DNA of 60,573 nucleotides, the filler included. It is 7 parts of 7 records of this genome, joined end to end, with 100 filler letters (N's around TTAATTAATTAA, not from the genome) between each part and the next. Parts side by side here need not be neighbours in the genome. Positions count along the whole stretch, not along the records: positions 13,773 to 22,037 come from SRR31156797_28401; 6 more parts are not named here. One strand, written 5' to 3'. The notes below the pieces were generated by a model that saw only the letters and a program-made list of their open reading frames with translations, was not told the DNA's origin and searched no databases. Positions 13,673 through 51,060 of this stretch are shown here, one piece after another; positions within the stretch are counted from its first letter, which is position 1, and every line of letters starts with the position of its first letter. The position numbers were made by a program, and so were the translations under genes.

Positions 13673-13772
13673 NNNNNNNNNNNNNNNNNNNNNNNNNNNN
13701 NNNNNNNNNNNNNNNNTTAATTAATTAANNNNNNNNNNNNNNNNNNNNNNNNNNNNNNNNNNNNNNNNNNNN
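13673..13772. other. Artificial contig linker
   Basis: N-run + TTAATTAATTAA (stops in all six frames) + N-run, 100 nt. Confidence 0.99.
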
Positions 13773-14228
13773 TTCTCCCTTCCCGTGGACGACTTCATCG
13801 AATCCGCCTGGTACGGGGACAGACGCAGTTATCTCTATGCCGACGGCGAGAAGGCCCGGTCGGTTCACAACGGCCTCGACCTGGCCGCCGCCACGGGTAC
13901 GGAGATCCGATGTCCCATAGAGGGGAAGGTGGTCATGGCCAAAGAGCGGATCATTACGGGATGGACCGTGGTTCTCGAGCATCTGCCGGGCGTTTACACC
14001 CTCTACTATCATCTGGACCGGATGGACGTGTCTGTCGGAGAAATGCTGAAAACGGGGGACCTTATGGGGACCGTAGGTTCCACCGGGCTGGTGACGGGGC
14101 CCCACCTCCACTGGGAAATGAGGGTGAACACAATTCCTGTTGATCCAAAGCGTTATTTATCCTATCCCCTTATTGACAAAGACGGGATATTGACCATAAT
14201 TAACGGTACTAAAGAACAAGGGAGGTGA
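13773..14228 (+). CDS. M23 family metallopeptidase (5'-truncated)
   Basis: HNGLDLAA (HxxxD), YYHL, GSTGLVTGPHLHWE (HxH). Confidence 0.92.
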   Translation, partial: FSLPVDDFIESAWYGDRRSYLYADGEKARSVHNGLDLAAATGTEIRCPIEGKVVMAKERIITGWTVVLEHLPGVYTLYYHLDRMDVSVGEMLKTGDLMGTVGSTGLVTGPHLHWEMRVNTIPVDPKRYLSYPLIDKDGILTIINGTKEQGR

Positions 14229-14234
14229 TTTCGT

Positions 14235-14435
14235 ATCGCCAACATAAGAATCAGTGATGATGAGCCCCTGGAAAAGGCAATCAAGCGGTTCAAAAGAATG
14301 GTTGAAAAAGAAGGTATTATCCGCGAATGGAAAAAACGCGAATATTATGAGAAGCCTTCCACCATCAAGAATCGTAAAAAGAAAGCCATGATCCGGAAGC
14401 ATGCTAAGAAGCTGCGGAAGACCCAGGGCAGATAA
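14235..14435 (+). CDS. rpsU: 30S ribosomal protein bS21, 66 aa, apparent ATC start; missing from ORF track
   Basis: Translates (M)[76 protein letters not shown] at 14221-14229. Confidence 0.95.
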
Positions 14436-14482
14436 TTGGAATCTTCGCTTCAGGCGGGGTATTCCTCATATCACTTAAAAAC

Positions 14483-14514
14483 AGAGCTCCCATCCAGGGG
14501 GCTCTTTTTGTTTT
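14483..14514 (+). terminator. Rho-independent terminator after rpsU
   Basis: AGAGCTCCC-ATCCA-GGGGGCTCT followed by a T-tract. Confidence 0.8.
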
Positions 14515-14663
14515 CCCTTTTTTCGGCTGAAGAGGGCTGTCCCGAAGGTGGTTCCGGCAGGCTCCGAGGGGGCTGCTTTTTCTCTGGATTACCTCGCCCG
14601 CGGGCGGGTACGGCGGAGGGCTCCGGTCTTTTCGCTACAGCCTTTCCGTGCTACTATGAGCCC

Positions 14664-15101
14664 ATGGTTTTGTGGATACTCTACCTGATGGCGGCAGTTC
14701 TCGTTATCTGTGCCGCGGTTGCGCTCTTTTTTTTCCGGATAAGGAAAAAGAGAGAGTATAAAACCAATCTTCGCCTCAACCAGACCCTGCAGCAGCTGAT
14801 CAGTCAGGATCAGTACGAATACTATCTGGTGGATGTCCGTTCGGAAGGTGAGTTCCGTAAAGGGCATATTCCCACGGCGGTCAACGTTCCCTACGGAGAA
14901 TTGAACTCCTATCTTCCCACGGACGATCTGTTTGCCAACATAGTTGTTTACGGGCGATCTCCCCTTCAGTCTTCCCGGGCTGCGGGTATCCTCAGCGATG
15001 CGGGCTACTTCAACGTCACCAGTTTCGGACCCGTCTTTCGCTGGAGAGGTCCCGTTTCAAGGGGAAACGACACAGGGGAAGATCAGAAAAAAAGCGTCTA
15101 G
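14664..15101 (+). CDS. Membrane-anchored rhodanese-like domain protein (start moved to ATG 14664)
   Basis: N-terminal TM helix, LVDVRSEGEFRKGHIPTAVNVP; the ORF-track extension runs through a terminator. Confidence 0.85.
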   Translation: MVLWILYLMAAVLVICAAVALFFFRIRKKREYKTNLRLNQTLQQLISQDQYEYYLVDVRSEGEFRKGHIPTAVNVPYGELNSYLPTDDLFANIVVYGRSPLQSSRAAGILSDAGYFNVTSFGPVFRWRGPVSRGNDTGEDQKKSV

Positions 15102-15257
15102 TTCGCTGCGTTCCCCCCCTCCCGAGCCTCCTGACGAAACAGTTCTGTCCTCAAGCGCATATATTGATTATATTGATAGGAAAGGCCCTTAGGCCCTATC
15201 CGAAAAAAACCATCAGGGCTCCCGTGAGCGCCCTGGTAGGATATTGGAGTAACTAGT

Positions 15258-18209
15258 ATGCCAGCAATCAAACATCCCGATTCCTATACCCTGATCTCCA
15301 CCGACGATCTGAAGGAGTACAGGGGGAAAGGCCTGCTTTTCGAACATAAGAAGACGGGTTGTCAGATATATCATGTGTTCAACGATGACGAAGAGAACCT
15401 TTTTTCCTTCGCCTTCAGAACCCCTCCCAAGGACAGCACCGGGGTCGCTCATATTCTGGAGCATTCAGTGCTCTGCGGCTCAAAAAACTTTCCTGTCAAG
15501 GATCCCTTCCTTTCCATGATGAAGGGGAGCGTCAACACCTTCCTCAACGCCATGACCTATCCCGACAAGACCCTCTATCCCGCCGCCAGTGTGCTGGAGA
15601 AGGACTTTTTCAACCTTATGGACGTCTATGGCGACGCGGTCTTCTTTCCCCGTCTGAATGAGGAGGTGTTCCGTCAGGAGGGGCATCGCCTGGAGATGGA
15701 CGACGAGGGAAAGCTCGTCCGCACGGGGATCGTCTACAATGAGATGAAGGGGAACTACTCCACCCAGGACGGCATAGCCTATGAATGGTCCATCCGCTCC
15801 CTCTTTCCCGAAGGCCCTTACTCGGTGGACTCGGGGGGAGATCCCGAGGTGATCCCTCAGCTCAGCTACGAGGACTTCATGGCCTTCCATGCGGACTACT
15901 ACCATCCCTCTAACTGCCGGATCTTCCTCTACGGAAACATCCCTTCCCAGCGCTCTCTGGAGTTCCTGGACAGCCGCTTCCTCTCCTCCTTCGCAAGAAG
16001 GGAGGTCTCATCGGCCGTCCCCCTGCAGAAGAGCTGGGACAAACCGAGGATCATGGAGACCGGCTGGCCCCTGGGAGAGTCGGAATCGGAAGAGGGGAAG
16101 AGCACCATCAGTCTGAACTGGAAGATCTTTCCCTACGGCGACGCGGTAAAGACCCTGAGCATGTCCATCCTTTCGGAGATGCTGATGGGCAACGCGGGGG
16201 CGCCCCTTTACAAAGCCATCCTCCAGTCCGGACTGGGTGAGGACCTTTCTCCGGTTAGCGGCGTCGATTTCGATCTTGCGGAGGGGGCCTTTTCCGTGGG
16301 TCTCCGGGGGAGCGATCCCGACAAGGCGGAAGCCTTTCAGAGGCTTGTCTTCCGGACCCTGGAAGAGATCGTAAGCGAGGGATTTGAAGGGGACCTGATG
16401 GAAAGCTGCATGCGCCGGGTGGAATTCCGGGCCCGCGAGATTCAGGGCGGCGGCCCCTTCGGGCTGCGTCTGCTCCGAAAGGTTATGAAGGGCTGGAACT
16501 ACGGACAGAATCCCGGCGATGCCATACGCTTCGACTCTGTGATGAAGGAGCTGAGGGCTCTCGCCGCGGGGAAAGGCTACTTCGAATCCCTCCTGAAGGA
16601 GTGGATCCTGGAGAACCGTCATATGAGCCGGGTCACCGTCAAGCCGGACAAGACCATGGCGCGCCGTCAGGAGGAGGCCCTCCGGAAGGAGCTGGCCGAT
16701 CTGGCCGATGCCATGAGCGACGGGGAGAAAGAGTCTCTGGGAGAGAAAAACAGGGCTCTCAAGGCGTTCCAGGAGGCCGAAGATGAGGGGAGCGTTCCCT
16801 TTCTCTCCACCTCCGATATTCCCCGGCAGGTCAAGAAGCTGACCGTGGATGTGTCCGCCGAAGCCTCCGCCGCGGTTCTGAGTCAGAGGGTCTTCACCAA
16901 CGGTATCCTCTATAACGATATGGCCTTCTCCCTGGGGGATCTCGAGGATGAGCTGTTCCCCTATCTGCCCCTTTTCTGCAAATACATATCCGGTACGGGC
17001 CTGCCCGGCGTTCCCTATGACAAGGTCGCCACCGAACTCGCCCTGAAAACCGGCGGCTTCGGCGTCTCCGTGGAAGCGGGGCACAAGGTGGGAGACCTTC
17101 CCGAGCAGAAGCCCGAGAGCTTTCTCTATCTCCGGATGAAGATGCTGGAGGCCCAGTGCGGGGAGGCCCTGGAGCTGGCGGCCTCGCTGATGAGGAATGC
17201 CGACTTTGATAACCATGAGCGCATGGAACAGATCCTCCTTGAGCTCTGGAACGATCTGAAGTCATCTCTCCTTCCCGGAGGGCACTCCTATGTCATGATA
17301 CGCGGGGGAAGCCGTTTCAGCAGCTCGGCCCGGCGTGAGGACCTTATGTACGGCATCGGGCAGCTCCAGTTCCTGGAGGCTCTCAAGGAGAGGGACGGCC
17401 GTCTGGATGAACTCAGCCGTGTCATGAAATCCCTGCGGCGGAGGATCTTCCGTCTGGATCATCTGACCCTCAGCGTCGTGGGGGACGAGGAGATCCTTGA
17501 GAGGCGGAGCGATGCCCTGCGCGGCTTCTGGCGGGAGAACCTCGGCTCCTCTGCCGATCCCTCCGTTGAGATCTATCTGCCGGGAAACGGGCTTCCCCCG
17601 GCGGCTCCCGCTTTGAAAGAGGCCGAGGGGCTGGGGATAGCCGCCATGGTCGGCTATGTGGGAAAGACCATACGGGGTGCGGACATGGAGAGCGAGGGCT
17701 ATATCAGCGAATCCCTCCTCAGCCAGCTGATGAAGACCGGACCTCTGTGGGAGAAGATCAGGATGAAGGGCGGCGCCTACGGCGCGTTCAGTTCCAATTC
17801 GGGACTGGACAGGACCTTTACCTTCGCCACCTATCGGGATCCCGAGATAGGGGCCTCCCTGGACGCGTTCCGGGAGAGCCTGGAAGAGTTCTCGGGCTTT
17901 GACGATGCCGAGGAACTGGACAAGGCCGTGATCTCGGTAGCCGGAAAGGAGCTGAAGCCCCAGTCTCCTTCGGAGAAGAGCATGATCGCCATGAAACGGC
18001 GGCTCTACAGCATCTCCGACAGCCTCAGGCAACGGAACCGGGACCGCCTCCTGGCCTGCGGATGCGCCGATGTGGCGGGCTGCTCCCGGGAGCTGTTAGG
18101 CCGATGGGACGAGGACGGGGTGACCGTCATGGGTCATCCCGAGCGGCTGGATGAAGCGGCCGACCGATGGCCGGGACTGAAGGATAACCGCATCAATCTT
18201 CCCCAGTAG
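15258..18209 (+). CDS. Insulinase family M16C peptidase (presequence protease-like)
   Basis: TGVAHILEHSVLCGS (HxxEH), FLNAMTYPDKT, GIVYNEMKG, IRMKGGAYG, TYRDP. Confidence 0.95.
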   Translation: MPAIKHPDSYTLISTDDLKEYRGKGLLFEHKKTGCQIYHVFNDDEENLFSFAFRTPPKDSTGVAHILEHSVLCGSKNFPVKDPFLSMMKGSVNTFLNAMTYPDKTLYPAASVLEKDFFNLMDVYGDAVFFPRLNEEVFRQEGHRLEMDDEGKLVRTGIVYNEMKGNYSTQDGIAYEWSIRSLFPEGPYSVDSGGDPEVIPQLSYEDFMAFHADYYHPSNCRIFLYGNIPSQRSLEFLDSRFLSSFARREVSSAVPLQKSWDKPRIMETGWPLGESESEEGKSTISLNWKIFPYGDAVKTLSMSILSEMLMGNAGAPLYKAILQSGLGEDLSPVSGVDFDLAEGAFSVGLRGSDPDKAEAFQRLVFRTLEEIVSEGFEGDLMESCMRRVEFRAREIQGGGPFGLRLLRKVMKGWNYGQNPGDAIRFDSVMKELRALAAGKGYFESLLKEWILENRHMSRVTVKPDKTMARRQEEALRKELADLADAMSDGEKESLGEKNRALKAFQEAEDEGSVPFLSTSDIPRQVKKLTVDVSAEASAAVLSQRVFTNGILYNDMAFSLGDLEDELFPYLPLFCKYISGTGLPGVPYDKVATELALKTGGFGVSVEAGHKVGDLPEQKPESFLYLRMKMLEAQCGEALELAASLMRNADFDNHERMEQILLELWNDLKSSLLPGGHSYVMIRGGSRFSSSARREDLMYGIGQLQFLEALKERDGRLDELSRVMKSLRRRIFRLDHLTLSVVGDEEILERRSDALRGFWRENLGSSADPSVEIYLPGNGLPPAAPALKEAEGLGIAAMVGYVGKTIRGADMESEGYISESLLSQLMKTGPLWEKIRMKGGAYGAFSSNSGLDRTFTFATYRDPEIGASLDAFRESLEEFSGFDDAEELDKAVISVAGKELKPQSPSEKSMIAMKRRLYSISDSLRQRNRDRLLACGCADVAGCSRELLGRWDEDGVTVMGHPERLDEAADRWPGLKDNRINLPQ

Positions 18210-18218
18210 AATCGCCTG

Positions 18219-19397
18219 TTAAAGGGCGGCTCCGGCTTTCTTCGCGGAGGGTCGGAGCTGCAGGAGCAGGAGTCCCGTGAAGATCAGAGTCGTCCTCAGG
18301 TTATCCTGATGGAAGAAGAGGACGTTTATCGCAATCATCGCCACCCAGAGCATGCCCTGGATCCTCCAGAACCAGCTCAGGGCGGCCTCCCTGTTCTTCA
18401 CAAGCAGGATGCCCGCCACCAGGTAGAAGGGGTGGATCAGAAGGACGTTGATATTCTCCCGGGCCACCTGATGGTCCGTGAAGAAGGAGATGAACCAGAG
18501 CAGAAGTCCCGTAAGGCTCAGGAGGATCATAAGGATCATAAACAGGACGGCCGCCGCCTTTCTCCCCCTTCCTTTACGGCGGAAGCGGGCGAGTTGGAGC
18601 AGGAACAGCAGACCTCCCGATACAAGACCCGTGAACAGGGCCGGCAGGGCATGGGAGGAGGGCTTTTCGGGAATGGACGGGCCCCCCGATGCCTGCGAGA
18701 GGATGAGCTTTTCCGTCACAAGGGGGCCTCCGCCTACACTGAGGGCGTCAACGTGCTTCATCAGTTCATCCGGGAGGAACATGGTCTCCCACTCCGTAAC
18801 GGGTCTGTCTATCGTCCGCCCCTGGAGGAAGGAGAGGAGCCAGTCGGTAAAGAAGGCATGGCCGCTGTAGCGGCGGAAGGAGTTTCGAAAGCTTGTGCCG
18901 GCTGGCCTGTCCGTGGCCTCCCTCAAGGCTCCGCCGACGGCGTCGTTGAGAATATCCCTGGGACGAGTGGAGCAGTTATCCAGATAGTGGTGATAGAGGT
19001 AGACGTTGTTACCCGGTTTTACCCCTTCCTCAAGAGAGTCTCTCATCCGTCTGATCGTTTCCTGGGGGAGGTCCAGGCGCTGGAGGGTCACATCCCTGTC
19101 TTCATTGACAATGTAATTCAGATAGGCCCTGGAGGAGACGCCTATCTTGAGGTAGTTGAGCCTGCCCATGCCGAAATCCCAGTAGAAATCATCTGACTCA
19201 AAAGAGAAATTTCCGAAGTCGTAGAACCTTCCCCGCCCCTTCTCGTTTTCAATGATAATGCCCGTATGGCCGAACCAGGCGTAGAGCTCCTTTCCGGGGC
19301 CCACGGTCAGCAGTGAACAGGACAGAGTCTTTTCGGTCGCGGAGAGGAAAAGGGACATACCGAGAAGCTGAAGAAGAATCAAAAATCTGCGTTTCAT
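18219..19397 (-). CDS. DUF4105 / Lnb-like membrane protein (putative lipoprotein N-acyltransferase)
   Basis: Signal peptide, LLTVGPG.ELYAWFGH, YDFG.F.F, Y.YHHYLDNCSTR, C-terminal TM bundle. Confidence 0.75.
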   Translation of the reverse strand: MKRRFLILLQLLGMSLFLSATEKTLSCSLLTVGPGKELYAWFGHTGIIIENEKGRGRFYDFGNFSFESDDFYWDFGMGRLNYLKIGVSSRAYLNYIVNEDRDVTLQRLDLPQETIRRMRDSLEEGVKPGNNVYLYHHYLDNCSTRPRDILNDAVGGALREATDRPAGTSFRNSFRRYSGHAFFTDWLLSFLQGRTIDRPVTEWETMFLPDELMKHVDALSVGGGPLVTEKLILSQASGGPSIPEKPSSHALPALFTGLVSGGLLFLLQLARFRRKGRGRKAAAVLFMILMILLSLTGLLLWFISFFTDHQVARENINVLLIHPFYLVAGILLVKNREAALSWFWRIQGMLWVAMIAINVLFFHQDNLRTTLIFTGLLLLQLRPSAKKAGAAL

Positions 19398-19484
19398 TAT
19401 TGCCTCCGGGGCCGATCTGGTGTCAAAGCCCTCATATATTACGTCAGGAGACCTTTTTTTTCCAGCTAAGAGGCGAAAATCTAT

Positions 19485-19512
19485 TTCACAGCTGAGTGCA
19501 ATATGGTAGAAT
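19485..19512 (+). promoter_or_regulatory. Sigma70-type promoter of the histone gene
   Basis: TTCACA-16 nt-TAGAAT with extended -10 TG; SD AAGGAG at 19533. Confidence 0.6.
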
Positions 19513-19545
19513 AGGCGCTATCAAATTGGCATAAGGAGCAATTTT

Positions 19546-19731
19546 ATGGCCGAAAAAGAAACCCTGGTGGTATCATCTAAGGTTAAAAACTACATCAAGA
19601 GCAATGGTGATCTGAAGTGTTCTGCCAAAGTCATCGATGTTCTGTCAGACAAAATCAGAGAGATGTGTGACGCTGCAATCGAGAATGCAAAAAACGATAA
19701 AAGAAAAACCGTTCAGGAGAAGGACTTCTAA
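19546..19731 (+). CDS. Bacterial histone-fold protein (Bd0055/HLp-like)
   Basis: LVVSSKVKNYIK...SAKVIDVLS...AIENAKNDKRKTVQEKDF: three-helix histone fold with RKTxxxxD signature. Confidence 0.88.
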   Translation: MAEKETLVVSSKVKNYIKSNGDLKCSAKVIDVLSDKIREMCDAAIENAKNDKRKTVQEKDF

Positions 19732-19757
19732 GAGTTCCCTTGCGTTCTGAATGAAAG

Positions 19758-19786
19758 AGGCTGCCCTTCGGGGCGGCTTTTTTTTT
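19758..19786 (+). terminator. Rho-independent terminator after the histone gene
   Basis: AGGCTGCCC-TTCG-GGGCGGCTT followed by a T-run. Confidence 0.9.
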
Positions 19787-19840
19787 CTCCGGAACATGCC
19801 TTTCCCCGTGCCCTATCGCCATCTCGGGCATAGGGCTTTC

Positions 19841-19869
19841 TTGACCCGGGGAGGAAAGCCCGTTAATAT
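19841..19869 (+). promoter_or_regulatory. Sigma70-type promoter of coaX-pdxS-pdxT
   Basis: TTGACC-17 nt-TAATAT. Confidence 0.6.
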
Positions 19870-19979
19870 GAAATCGCTTCGGGTCGATTTTCCCTTTTGA
19901 AAACGGTACCGGGCTAAAATCAAAACTATCAATCAGGCTTGATCTGTGGAGGACAGGTGCTGAAAAGAACGAAAACACC

Positions 19980-20753
19980 ATGATTCTGGCTTTGGACGCA
20001 GGAAGTACCCGGCTCTTCGGGGGGATCCTGCAGAACGGACGACTGGGAGCCAGTTTTCAGAAGAACACAAGCTCTCATATGAGCTCCGACGAACTGGGAC
20101 TTTATCTCTTGCAATGGCTTCGGTTCAGGGAACTGAGACGGGAGGACATCGAAGGATTTGTCTTCTGTTCCGTCGTCCCCGAGCTGAACTCCGTTATGGA
20201 GGAGTGCAGCCGCCTGTATTTTGAGCAGGAGGCCGTTTCCCTTAAAGCCGGCGTGAAAAGCGGATTGCAGATCAAGTATACCAACCATCGTGAGTTGGGT
20301 GCGGATCTTATCGCCAACGCCGTCGCCGCCGTAAAAAGGCACCCGGGAAAGAACCTTCTCATCATTGACTTCGGAACGGCCACGAGCCTCTGCGCCGTAA
20401 GCGCTTCCAAAGAGTATCTGGGGGGAACCCTCGTTCCCGGTCTGGATATCTCCATGGAGGCCCTTGCGGGGCGGACCGCCCGGCTTCCCGAGGTCGAGAT
20501 ACGGAGCGCCAGAAGGGTGTGCGGCAGGGATACGGTGAGCGCCATACAGGGCGGCCTCTACTACGGAACGGTGGGCATGCTCAAGGAGTTGAGCTACCGG
20601 CTGAAGAAAGAGTGCTTCCCCGATGAAGAGCTGATCACCGTCGCTACGGGCGCCCATGCCTCCCTGTTCCAGAATCATAATCTCTTTGACGAAATCGTTC
20701 CCGAACTTGTCCTCCTCGGTCTGGAAGAAATCAGAAACCTCAACCTGGATTGA
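19980..20753 (+). CDS. coaX: Type III pantothenate kinase
   Basis: [37 protein letters not shown]. Confidence 0.93.
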
Positions 20754-20770
20754 TAAGGCTGGAGGTCGCT

Positions 20771-21676
20771 ATGAGCGAACAGACCTGGTCTGAAAGACAG
20801 ACCGCAACATGGAAGAGTAAGGTGGGCATGGCCGAGATGCTGAAGGGCGGCGTTATCATGGATGTGGTGACGCCCGAACAGGCTGTTATCGCCGAACAGG
20901 CGGGGGCCGCGGCGGTTATGGCCCTGGAGCGTGTGCCGGCGGATATCCGCAGCGACGGCGGAGTGGCCCGCATGTCCGATCCCCATATGATCGAAGGGAT
21001 ACAGAAGGCCGTGACCATACCCGTCATGGCCAAATGCAGGATAGGGCATTTCACTGAGGCCCGCATCCTCGAGGCGATGGAGATCGACTTCATCGATGAA
21101 TCCGAGGTGCTCACGCCGGCCGACGACCGCTATCATATACTGAAAGACAGGTTCTCCGTTCCCTTTGTCTGCGGCTGCCGTAACCTGGGGGAGGCCCTGC
21201 GCAGAATCGCCGAGGGGGCGGTTATGATCCGCAGCAAGGGCGAGGCGGGCACGGGGGACGTGCTTGAAGCGGTCCGCCATCTGAGAACCCTGAAAGAGGA
21301 TATCGCCCGATTGCGGGGCATGCCGCCTGAAACCCTGATGACGGCGTCCAAAGAGCTGGGAGCCCCCCTGGATCTGGTGAGGACCGTGGCAGAAGCGGGA
21401 AGGATTCCGGTGCCCCTGTTTTCCGCCGGAGGCGTGGCCACGCCGGCGGACGCGGCCCTGATGATGGAGCTGGGGGCCGAAGCGGTCTTCGTGGGCTCGG
21501 GTATCTTCAAGTCGGAAGAGCCCGCCAAACGGGCCCGGGCCATTGTGGAGGCTGTCAGCTACTATGACGATCCTGCCCGCCTGGTCGAGCTGAGCCGCAA
21601 TCTGGGAGCCCCCCTGACAGGGATCGCCATGGACGAACTCTGCATGGAGAAGCGCCTGGCCGGCCGGGGCTGGTAG
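20771..21676 (+). CDS. pdxS: Pyridoxal 5'-phosphate synthase, lyase subunit
   Basis: [53 protein letters not shown] before ATG 20771. Confidence 0.97.
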
Positions 21677-22037
21677 TGGCCGTCTGCGGTATACTGGCCC
21701 TGCAGGGCGGTTTCAAGGCCCATGCCGATGTCCTCCGCTCATTGGGTAGGGAGACCCTGTATGTAAAAAACTCCGACGAGCTGGATCGCTGCGACAGGCT
21801 GATCCTTCCTGGAGGCGAAAGCACGGCCATGATCCGGCTGCTGGGACGCTCGTCTTTAAGGGAGGCTCTTCTCCGCCGTGTGGGGGAGGGCATGCCCGTA
21901 TTCGGGACCTGCGCGGGGATGGTGCTCCTTTCCGCTGGTGTCTGCGGTTCCGGTCTGGAGACTCTGGGGCTTCTGGACTGCCTGGTGCGCCGAAACGCCT
22001 ACGGCCGGCAGATCGCCAGCTTCGAGGCTTCCCTTTC
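21676..22037 (+). CDS. pdxT: PLP synthase glutaminase subunit (3'-truncated)
   Basis: GILALQG, LILPGGEST, GTCAGMVLL, RNAYGRQ. Confidence 0.95.
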
Positions 22038-22137
22038 NNNNNNNNNNNNNNNNNNNNNNNNNNNNNNNNNNNNNNNNNNNNTTAATTAATTAANNNNNNN
22101 NNNNNNNNNNNNNNNNNNNNNNNNNNNNNNNNNNNNN
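22038..22137. other. Artificial contig linker
   Basis: N-run + TTAATTAATTAA + N-run. Confidence 0.99.
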
Positions 22138-27768: not shown

Positions 27769-27868
27769 NNNNNNNNNNNNNNNNNNNNNNNNNNNNNNNN
27801 NNNNNNNNNNNNTTAATTAATTAANNNNNNNNNNNNNNNNNNNNNNNNNNNNNNNNNNNNNNNNNNNN
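27769..27868. other. Artificial contig linker
   Basis: N-run + TTAATTAATTAA + N-run. Confidence 0.99.
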
Positions 27869-34451: not shown

Positions 34452-34551
34452 NNNNNNNNNNNNNNNNNNNNNNNNNNNNNNNNNNNNNNNNNNNNTTAAT
34501 TAATTAANNNNNNNNNNNNNNNNNNNNNNNNNNNNNNNNNNNNNNNNNNNN
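34452..34551. other. Artificial contig linker
   Basis: N-run + TTAATTAATTAA + N-run. Confidence 0.99.
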
Positions 34552-45314: not shown

Positions 45315-45414
45315 NNNNNNNNNNNNNNNNNNNNNNNNNNNNNNNNNNNNNNNNNNNNTTAATTAATTAANNNNNNNNNNNNNNNNNNNNNNNNNNNNNN
45401 NNNNNNNNNNNNNN
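45315..45414. other. Artificial contig linker
   Basis: N-run + TTAATTAATTAA + N-run. Confidence 0.99.
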
Positions 45415-50960: not shown

Positions 50961-51060
50961 NNNNNNNNNNNNNNNNNNNNNNNNNNNNNNNNNNNNNNNN
51001 NNNNTTAATTAATTAANNNNNNNNNNNNNNNNNNNNNNNNNNNNNNNNNNNNNNNNNNNN
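50961..51060. other. Artificial contig linker
   Basis: N-run + TTAATTAATTAA + N-run. Confidence 0.99.

Follow-up and report, generated by a model that had tools for sequence, protein, structure and literature searches.

The 60,573-nucleotide stretch of DNA analysed here (the window) carries a 61-codon open reading frame (ORF) that had been predicted, from its letters, to encode a stand-alone histone in a spirochaete outside Leptospira. The locus raises the question of which kind of histone this would be and what such a protein would do in its host. To our knowledge, experimental work on bacterial histones has so far been confined to HBb, which forms a dimer and bends DNA, and HLp, which forms a tetramer and wraps it. 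We regard it as likely that the gene encodes a singlet, α3-truncated histone of the HBb/Bd0055 “bacterial dimer” type, that it is a vertically inherited core gene, and that its product is a probable abundant nucleoid protein. The closest public genome is a metagenome-assembled genome (MAG) of an Oceanispirochaeta sp. (L002, genome G001), with about 82% DNA identity over 7.4 kb, and the predicted placement in a non-Leptospira spirochaete is upheld. Whole-genome counts given below were made in this genome. Published definitions and residue roles are cited from Schwab et al. (2024), Hu et al. (2024), Hocher et al. (2023) and the paper describing HLp.

The protein has a mass of 6.9 kDa, a net charge of +2 and an isoelectric point (pI) of 8.6, compared with a median pI of 8.62 among 120 homologues. 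In the AlphaFold2 (AF2) model (predicted local distance difference test score, pLDDT, 81.9), α1 spans residues 3-21, loop L1 22-26, α2 27-50, loop L2 51-57 and α3 58-60. Both AF2 and Foldseek point to a single histone fold of the order α1-L1-α2-L2-α3, with no other domain in the 61 residues. The predicted α3 is only three residues long, and the chain ends one residue past the Asp that closes the clamp discussed below. The truncated α3 and the RKT...D motif (R53-K54-T55, D60) named in the original prediction are both present. The “long α2” that it also described is not borne out; the helix has 24 residues in the model, and the papers call it shorter than in archaeal histones.

Searches by sequence and by structure converge on the same relatives. 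Pfam family PF00808 (CBFD_NFYB_HMF) matches residues 29-60 with 22.4 bits (cut-off 21.4), and PF09123 (DUF1931) reaches 14.6 bits, below its cut-off of 21.8. In a phmmer search of the PDB chains, the best match was HBb/Bd0055 (8fvx/8cmp; E 1.1e-11), aligned without gaps over residues 5-60 at about 51% identity, followed by HLp of Leptospira perolatii (9qt0; E 8.7e-10) and HTkC (9e-4). HmvA (0.03) and archaeal histone A (0.19) lie beyond the usual threshold. A designed repeat protein (7rdr, E 3.7e-6) ranked between HLp and HTkC, with no stretch significant alone. A profile of 30 spirochaete homologues scored 69.4 bits for HBb (2.7e-18), 54.6 for HLp and 40.9 for HTkC (2.2e-9). The nine top Foldseek hits are chains of HBb, HLp and HTkC (template modelling, or TM, score of about 0.7), HBb being first, and are followed by H2B and NF-Y; the Foldseek identities are 51-52% for HBb and 43% for HLp. 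Sequence search, profile, predicted fold and predicted dimer agree with the Bd0055/HLp-like sequence pattern that had been recognised at the outset.

The residues named in the papers were mapped onto the protein through the phmmer alignments (Table 1). In HBb, DNA contacts have been assigned to N22, R57, S9, T53, T8, S24, K10, K12, K52 and K16, and salt bridges to D49-R51-D58 (Hu et al. 2024). At the equivalent positions, K12, K14, R53, K54, T55 and D60 each occur in all 121 close homologues of the protein, S11 in 120 and K18 in 119. The homodimer prediction scored 0.76 (best control 0.00), although memory of the solved HBb and HLp complexes may contribute to this value. The score passes a mark that 21 of 30 proteins whose structures are pairs of one chain attained, as against 0 of 23 solved as single chains, and the homodimer runs showed a contact agreement of at least 98% and a partner pLDDT of at least 87. 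It is the lack of the face-to-face (FtF) residues, described below, that points to the “bacterial dimer” class.

The expected role of the protein was assessed from proxies of expression and from the nucleoid proteins encoded beside it. As originally noted, the gene is AT-richer than its surroundings. The GC content is 0.395-0.45 over the gene and 0.55-0.68 in the flanks; by gene, it is 0.40 compared with 0.56-0.63 in the neighbours, and at third codon positions (GC3) it is 0.50 compared with 0.69-0.77 in the four neighbours. In the closest genome, the ribosomal-protein operon (19 genes, 3330 codons) has a GC3 of 0.498 and the genes flanking the histone 0.60-0.74. Codons were scored by the log-likelihood ratio of ribosomal-operon versus flanking-gene usage (59 codons scored). 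Per codon, the histone gene scores +0.135 in its window version and +0.197 in the L002 version. The 19 ribosomal-operon genes, each left out in turn, averaged +0.168 (0.05 to 0.27), and the nine flanking genes -0.137, eight of them being negative; the neighbours in the window ranged from -0.11 to -0.42. In addition, 182 of the 186 nucleotides of the gene are identical to those of L002, and the four differences are all synonymous third positions, in a region that is otherwise about 82% identical. Codon usage and synonymous conservation suggest strong selection on a highly expressed gene.

The closest genome also shows four matches to PF00216 (HU/IHF family), all above the cut-off, so that the histone would work alongside classical nucleoid proteins, a situation described for Bdellovibrio (Schwab et al. 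2024; Hu et al. 2024). The prediction of histone-based chromatin holds for the bacterial histone itself; chromatin is an overstatement in view of these four matches and of an abundance read solely from codon usage. A histone-fold protein with a narrower job, either a low-abundance specific regulator or the partner of another protein rather than a general nucleoid protein, would accommodate the HU/IHF-family genes, and the abundance of the histone is itself a deduction. Public records of the homologues are also partly named “NFYB/HAP3 transcription factor subunit”, and Schwab et al. (2024) remark that prokaryotic histone-fold proteins are not all necessarily global organisers. We nevertheless consider such a role improbable. 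The NFYB/HAP3 names match that of the Pfam family PF00808, from which they presumably derive, and all 121 homologues retain the HBb backbone-contact residues and the RD clamp without change. High expression is suggested by codon usage and by how little the synonymous positions have diverged. The gene is monocistronic, no partner gene is conserved downstream of it, and it is universal and single-copy in its order.

The nearest structural alternative to the HBb type is the FtF histone of Leptospira. Schwab et al. (2024) characterise α3-truncated histones by an α3 of 3-4 residues and a shortened α2. Among these, the FtF tetramer depends on R48/N52 (logo numbering), and the “bacterial dimers”, a category defined by CLANS clustering, are described as lacking R48/N52 and retaining RKTxxxD together with the α1 lysines. 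In HLp, the tetramer contacts join R49, S52 and N53 with F63, T61 and R55, and R49, N53 and R55 are reported to be conserved in FtF histones (HLp paper). From this trio (HLp numbering), only R55 is retained here, as R53; R at position 47 and N at position 51 are each found in 0 of 121 close homologues. Judged by its residues, the protein falls under the definition of the bacterial dimer class and outside the FtF definition: it lacks the residues of the FtF tetramer and keeps those of the HBb DNA contacts and the RD clamp. An FtF histone like HLp, in which two dimers close into a torus-shaped, DNA-wrapping tetramer, would be in keeping with the second rank of HLp in both sequence and fold (8.7e-10; 43% identity, TM about 0.7), with the FtF histones that the papers report in Spirochaetota, and with the F61, R53 and overall length that the two proteins have in common. 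This reading is decidedly unlikely, however, since the tetrameric-FtF residues are replaced (R49 by N47, N53 by D51) and none of the 121 homologues has R47 or N51. The family profile favours HBb over HLp by about 15 bits, and the HLp alignment requires a gap in L1, whereas that with HBb is gap-free. The protein also has no N-terminal tail, which Schwab et al. (2024) describe as common in bacterial FtF histones.

A word-index search returned 139 homologues, at E-values of at most 1e-18 among the matches listed, and all the named homologue records are from spirochaetes (“histone-like protein”, “NFYB/HAP3”, “histone H3/H4”). In the genome_contigs collection, 136 stretches encode a relative, with an identical protein in two MAGs, and a full HMMER scan of cluster representatives yielded 476 proteins at E-values of at most 1e-3, 52 of them at 1e-10 or less. 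The closest genome has one histone copy, as does each of the genomes drawn from its family (one match each in 38 of 38); the order-level draw consisted of the same 38 genomes. Matches were found in 90 of the 401 genomes sampled from class Spirochaetia, or 52 of 363 outside the order of the closest genome. The phylum sample gave 93 of 401: in 21 the identity is at least 50%, and in the other 72 it is 43-49%; we take the latter to be, presumably, of the Leptospira type. Among 80 loci, the Lnb-like gene is kept upstream in 26 and the M16 peptidase gene in 19, and the coaX-pdxS pair is kept downstream in L002 alone. A tblastn search of phage and plasmid collections gave no match. We conclude that the histone gene is a vertically inherited single-copy core gene of the marine Oceanispirochaeta-like order. 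That the ORF arose by chance, or that it is a passenger gained recently by horizontal transfer, with low GC (0.40 compared with 0.56-0.63 in the neighbouring genes) as the mark of foreign DNA and 65-66% identical relatives in two non-spirochaete MAGs (L076 and L078), is scarcely credible in the face of the 139 homologues, the 38 of 38 presence in the order, the conserved upstream synteny and the lack of phage or plasmid matches. The low GC does not point to foreign DNA, because the organism's own ribosomal-protein genes have an equally low GC3 (0.498).

Some relatives depart from the general pattern. The two MAGs just mentioned are labelled Myxococcota and Deltaproteobacteria, and their copies are as close to the protein as many spirochaete copies; horizontal transfer, a shared old family or a binning error could each account for them. 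In two class genomes among G614, G666 and G571, the histone match lies inside a longer open frame (240 and 154 residues), and these frames may be fused or N-terminally extended forms. G571 also contains a second, partial match (residues 20-61, 74% identity).

The features around the gene are consistent with its own transcription (Table 1), and the ORF, promoter, Shine-Dalgarno sequence and UUCG-loop terminator that had been pointed out are all in place. The promoter matches the consensus at 10 of 12 positions and has in addition an extended -10 element, TGgTAGAAT (19504-19512); transcription would start near 19519. Two promoter-like sites occur in the 700-nt region, compared with 0.8 +/- 1.1 in shuffles. 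In the nine closest sequences aligned, the extended -10 is kept throughout while the upstream DNA around it diverges, and the -35 TTCACA is common to L002 only. A simple motif scan, made without a shuffle control, covered the window and 80 loci. Of these 81 sequences, 30 have TGnTANAAT in the 110 nt upstream and 76 have GGAG, which hardly varies in the alignment, 4-10 nt ahead of the start codon; a hairpin with T-run lies in the 110 nt downstream at 35 of 80 loci. The terminator stem has 8 bp, including two G-U pairs, and nine T (19778-19786) of which the first is also the last base of the stem. For the hairpin, RNAfold computes -26.6 kcal/mol (z -3.15), a value matched by 0 of 200 shuffles. 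A rule-based terminator scan of the region reported 0 terminators and missed the hairpin site. Among the loci, the stems vary through compensatory changes. The histone gene is, on these grounds, a monocistronic transcription unit of its own. RNA evidence consists of Logan contigs, from which level, strand and true ends are not derivable and in which parts without cover carry no meaning. Run X7, a polyA metatranscriptome, has contigs that match the window exactly over 19534-19781, from the ribosome site to the terminator T-run. The X7 contig ends at 19781 followed by nine A, a weak hint for the terminator; this end may stem from an artefact of the library instead of true 3' polyadenylation, because other X7 contigs have A-rich loose ends.

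Several observations weigh against our interpretation of the gene as that of an abundant dimer-class histone. The margin of the Pfam PF00808 match is just 1 bit, and the NCBIfam model NF043032 (archaea_histone) scores 26.7 bits, below its cut-off of 50. Three of the five AF2 models have a pLDDT of 59-66. In the single-sequence search, HBb leads HLp by a modest margin (47.7 versus 41.7 bits), and three HBb contacts are changed here (N22 to K24, T23 to C25 and R57 to K59). The dimer prediction expresses likeness, and maybe memory, because the HBb and HLp complexes have already been solved. With four HU/IHF-family matches in the closest genome, the leading nucleoid protein could be one other than the histone. 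In run X10, the contig of a 95%-alike relative extends to 19839, through the terminator, and the RNA evidence, consisting of contigs only, is unable to rank expression, so that no conclusion on expression was drawn from it. Lastly, we infer DNA binding, bending, oligomeric state and abundance alike.

If the dimer-class interpretation is correct, two 61-residue chains would pair in an antiparallel histone-fold handshake dimer, as the models predict. With HBb as the guide, a DNA-binding surface made of the L1-L2 site and the first turn of α1 would be expected at either end of the dimer, with S10, S11, K12, K14, K18, K24, C25, S26, K54, T55 and K59 as the putative contact residues and L2 held by the D51-R53-D60 clamp. 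The contacts would be sequence-independent, reaching the backbone phosphates in the minor groove, and the dimer would bend and compact DNA with no wrapping. Expressed at a level like that of ribosomal proteins, it would be a probable nucleoid-associated protein working beside those of the HU/IHF family. Gene anatomy, codon bias, distribution, homology, class-defining residues and predicted fold are results of the present analysis; that the protein dimerises in the cell, bends DNA, is abundant and takes part in chromatin is inferred.

Two cysteines (in KCS and EMC) had been proposed to add redox sensitivity. Both are present, and they are not alike. C41 aligns with the α2 cysteine of HBb; Cys is found at this position in 104 of 121 close homologues and, in the wider set of singlet representatives, in 33 of 44. 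The dimer model packs C41 against partner-chain residues 13, 16, 17 and 33, and the 25 least-error pairs that it lists include no intersubunit C41-C41 contact. C41 thus appears in the model as an ordinary, family-wide residue of the dimer interface. C25, in L1, is Cys in 119 of 121 close homologues, while the wider set has Thr in 30 of 44 and Cys in 13 of 44. Its counterpart in HBb is T23, which contacts the backbone from L1, and the dimer model predicts that C25 touches T55 of the other chain in the L1-L2 site. The alignments identify C25 as a spirochaete-clade Thr-to-Cys change at the DNA-contact loop. A redox role for C25 is possible and is kept here as speculation. Oxidation or modification of its thiol in vivo might switch off the DNA binding of a core chromatin protein with an expression level like that of ribosomal proteins, a reading that we consider improbable; if true, it would couple nucleoid compaction to the redox state in anaerobic spirochaetes.

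Table 1. Features of the histone locus and residues equivalent to those named for HBb and HLp
Feature	Position	Strand	Basis or remarks
Sigma-70-like promoter	-35 TTCACA 19485-19490; 16-nt spacer; TG 19504-19505; -10 TAGAAT 19507-19512	+	Consensus scan
Shine-Dalgarno sequence AAGGAG	19533-19538	+	7 nt before ATG; read directly
Coding sequence, 61-residue α3-truncated histone	19546-19731	+	ATG start, TAA stop; ORF and translation
Intrinsic terminator	19759-19786	+	Stem GGCUGCCC / GGGCGGCU, UUCG loop (19759-19778), T-run
Lnb_N/5TMH_Lnb membrane protein gene	18219-19397	-	Directly upstream of the histone gene, divergent; Pfam
Rhodanese-domain protein gene	In piece 13773-22037		Pfam
M16C/PreP-like peptidase gene	In piece 13773-22037		Pfam
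Type III pantothenate kinase (coaX), PdxS and PdxT genes	Downstream of the histone gene		Pfam
HBb T8, S9, K10, K12, K16, S24, K52, T53	S10, S11, K12, K14, K18, S26, K54, T55 of the protein
HBb clamp D49-R51-D58	D51-R53-D60 of the protein
HBb N22, T23, R57	K24, C25, K59 of the protein
HLp R49, S52, N53	N47, N50, D51 of the protein

The histone gene lies in the piece of the window from 13773 to 22037, and genes located outside this piece are not treated as its context, because the pieces may stem from different organisms. Six linkers of the form N44-TTAATTAATTAA-N44 (13673-13772, 22038-22137, 27769-27868, 34452-34551, 45315-45414 and 50961-51060) divide the window into at least seven pieces, and the GC3 of long ORFs varies between pieces from 0.18 to 0.80. 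The 148-nt spacer between the Lnb-like and histone genes may contain both promoters. Between the histone terminator and coaX, a second promoter-like site (19841-19869, + strand; TTGACC, 17-nt spacer, TAATAT; 9 of 12 consensus positions) may drive coaX-pdxS-pdxT. A contig at least 99% alike over 18730-21676 occurs in run X2, which is labelled “coral metagenome”; no habitat claim was drawn from it.

The occurrence of such proteins in spirochaetes has been anticipated in part. Bacterial dimers are reported in Spirochaetota, class Spirochaetia, by Schwab et al. (2024), and HBb contact residues are described as conserved in Spirochaetota relatives by Hu et al. (2024). The emphasis of Hocher et al. 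(2023) is on Bdellovibrionota and Leptospirales, and its main text contains no word starting with “Spirochaet”, “Spirochet” or “Treponema”. In a full-text search, the literature joining bacterial dimer, histone and Spirochaetia comprised only Schwab et al. (2024) and its preprint. Among the Oceanispirochaeta matches listed (titles and abstract starts) none concerned histones, and no bench study of a Spirochaetia member was found in the literature searched. One supplementary file of Schwab et al. (2024) does not contain Oceanispirochaeta, Spirochaetia, Thiospirochaeta or Sediminispirochaeta. The gene adds a member to a described class, and the gain is incremental, because the inference of an HBb-class histone in Spirochaetia is already in print. 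The present analysis adds the class assignment, the universal single-copy status in one order, the high-expression proxies and the clade-specific cysteine in the DNA-contact loop. Phylum Spirochaetota would carry both types, FtF histones in Leptospira and the HBb type in the Oceanispirochaeta-like order. No homologue from Oceanispirochaeta crateria was identified in the searches made. The protein P0041 of Thiospirochaeta perfilievii is 80% identical to the one described here, and the role of a dimer-class histone in vivo is therefore testable outside Bdellovibrio.

Compared with the known systems, the protein shares with the archaeal nucleosomal histones (HMfB, HTkA/B) and HTkC the histone fold and an RxTxxxxD-type L2 motif, and the archaeal-type matches are weak yet significant (HTkC 9e-4; profile 2.2e-9). 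Unlike in the archaeal proteins, α2 is shorter, by the papers' description, and α3 has three residues instead of about ten; hypernucleosome-type interfaces are not expected. Hocher et al. (2023) describe bacterial singlets as lacking the sprocket arginine. The DUF1931 proteins (Aquifex Aq_328, Thermus 1WWI) are distant relatives in the histone fold, with a Pfam score below the cut-off; they are doublets said to lack the DNA-binding residues, whereas the present protein is a singlet that retains them. Doublets were also encountered among the best-scoring cluster representatives (P0122-P0131; 126-274 residues), which contain two tandem HBb-like histone folds, and in P0128 and P0131 an N-terminal Cys-rich, zinc-finger-like region. 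The dimer class may have its pseudodimeric and ZZ-type relatives among these doublets.

The bacterial FtF histones, represented by HLp (Leptospira perolatii / L. interrogans LA_2458; PDB 9QT0-2), come from the same phylum and have the same α3-truncated fold (43% identity). The N-terminal AEK-TL-V-SKVK-YIKS pattern, the RD clamp and the C-terminal DF are common to both. The protein differs from HLp in an L1 that is one residue longer and in a profile score for HLp about 15 bits lower than that for HBb, and a DNA-wrapping tetramer is not expected because R49 and N53 of HLp are missing. The closest counterpart is HBb/Bd0055 of Bdellovibrio bacteriovorus (PDB 8FVX, 8CMP, 9EZZ, 9F0E). The protein differs from it in having K24-C25 in L1 instead of N22-T23, K59 instead of R57, F61 instead of I59, and a spirochaete host in place of the predatory Bdellovibrio, the present member being known from sequence and models. 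Like HBb, the protein is a singlet of about 60 residues with a truncated α3, an S-K motif at the start of α1 followed by the α1 lysines, RKT in L2, the D-R-D clamp and a cysteine in α2 (C39 in HBb, C41 here), and like HBb it lacks the FtF residues.

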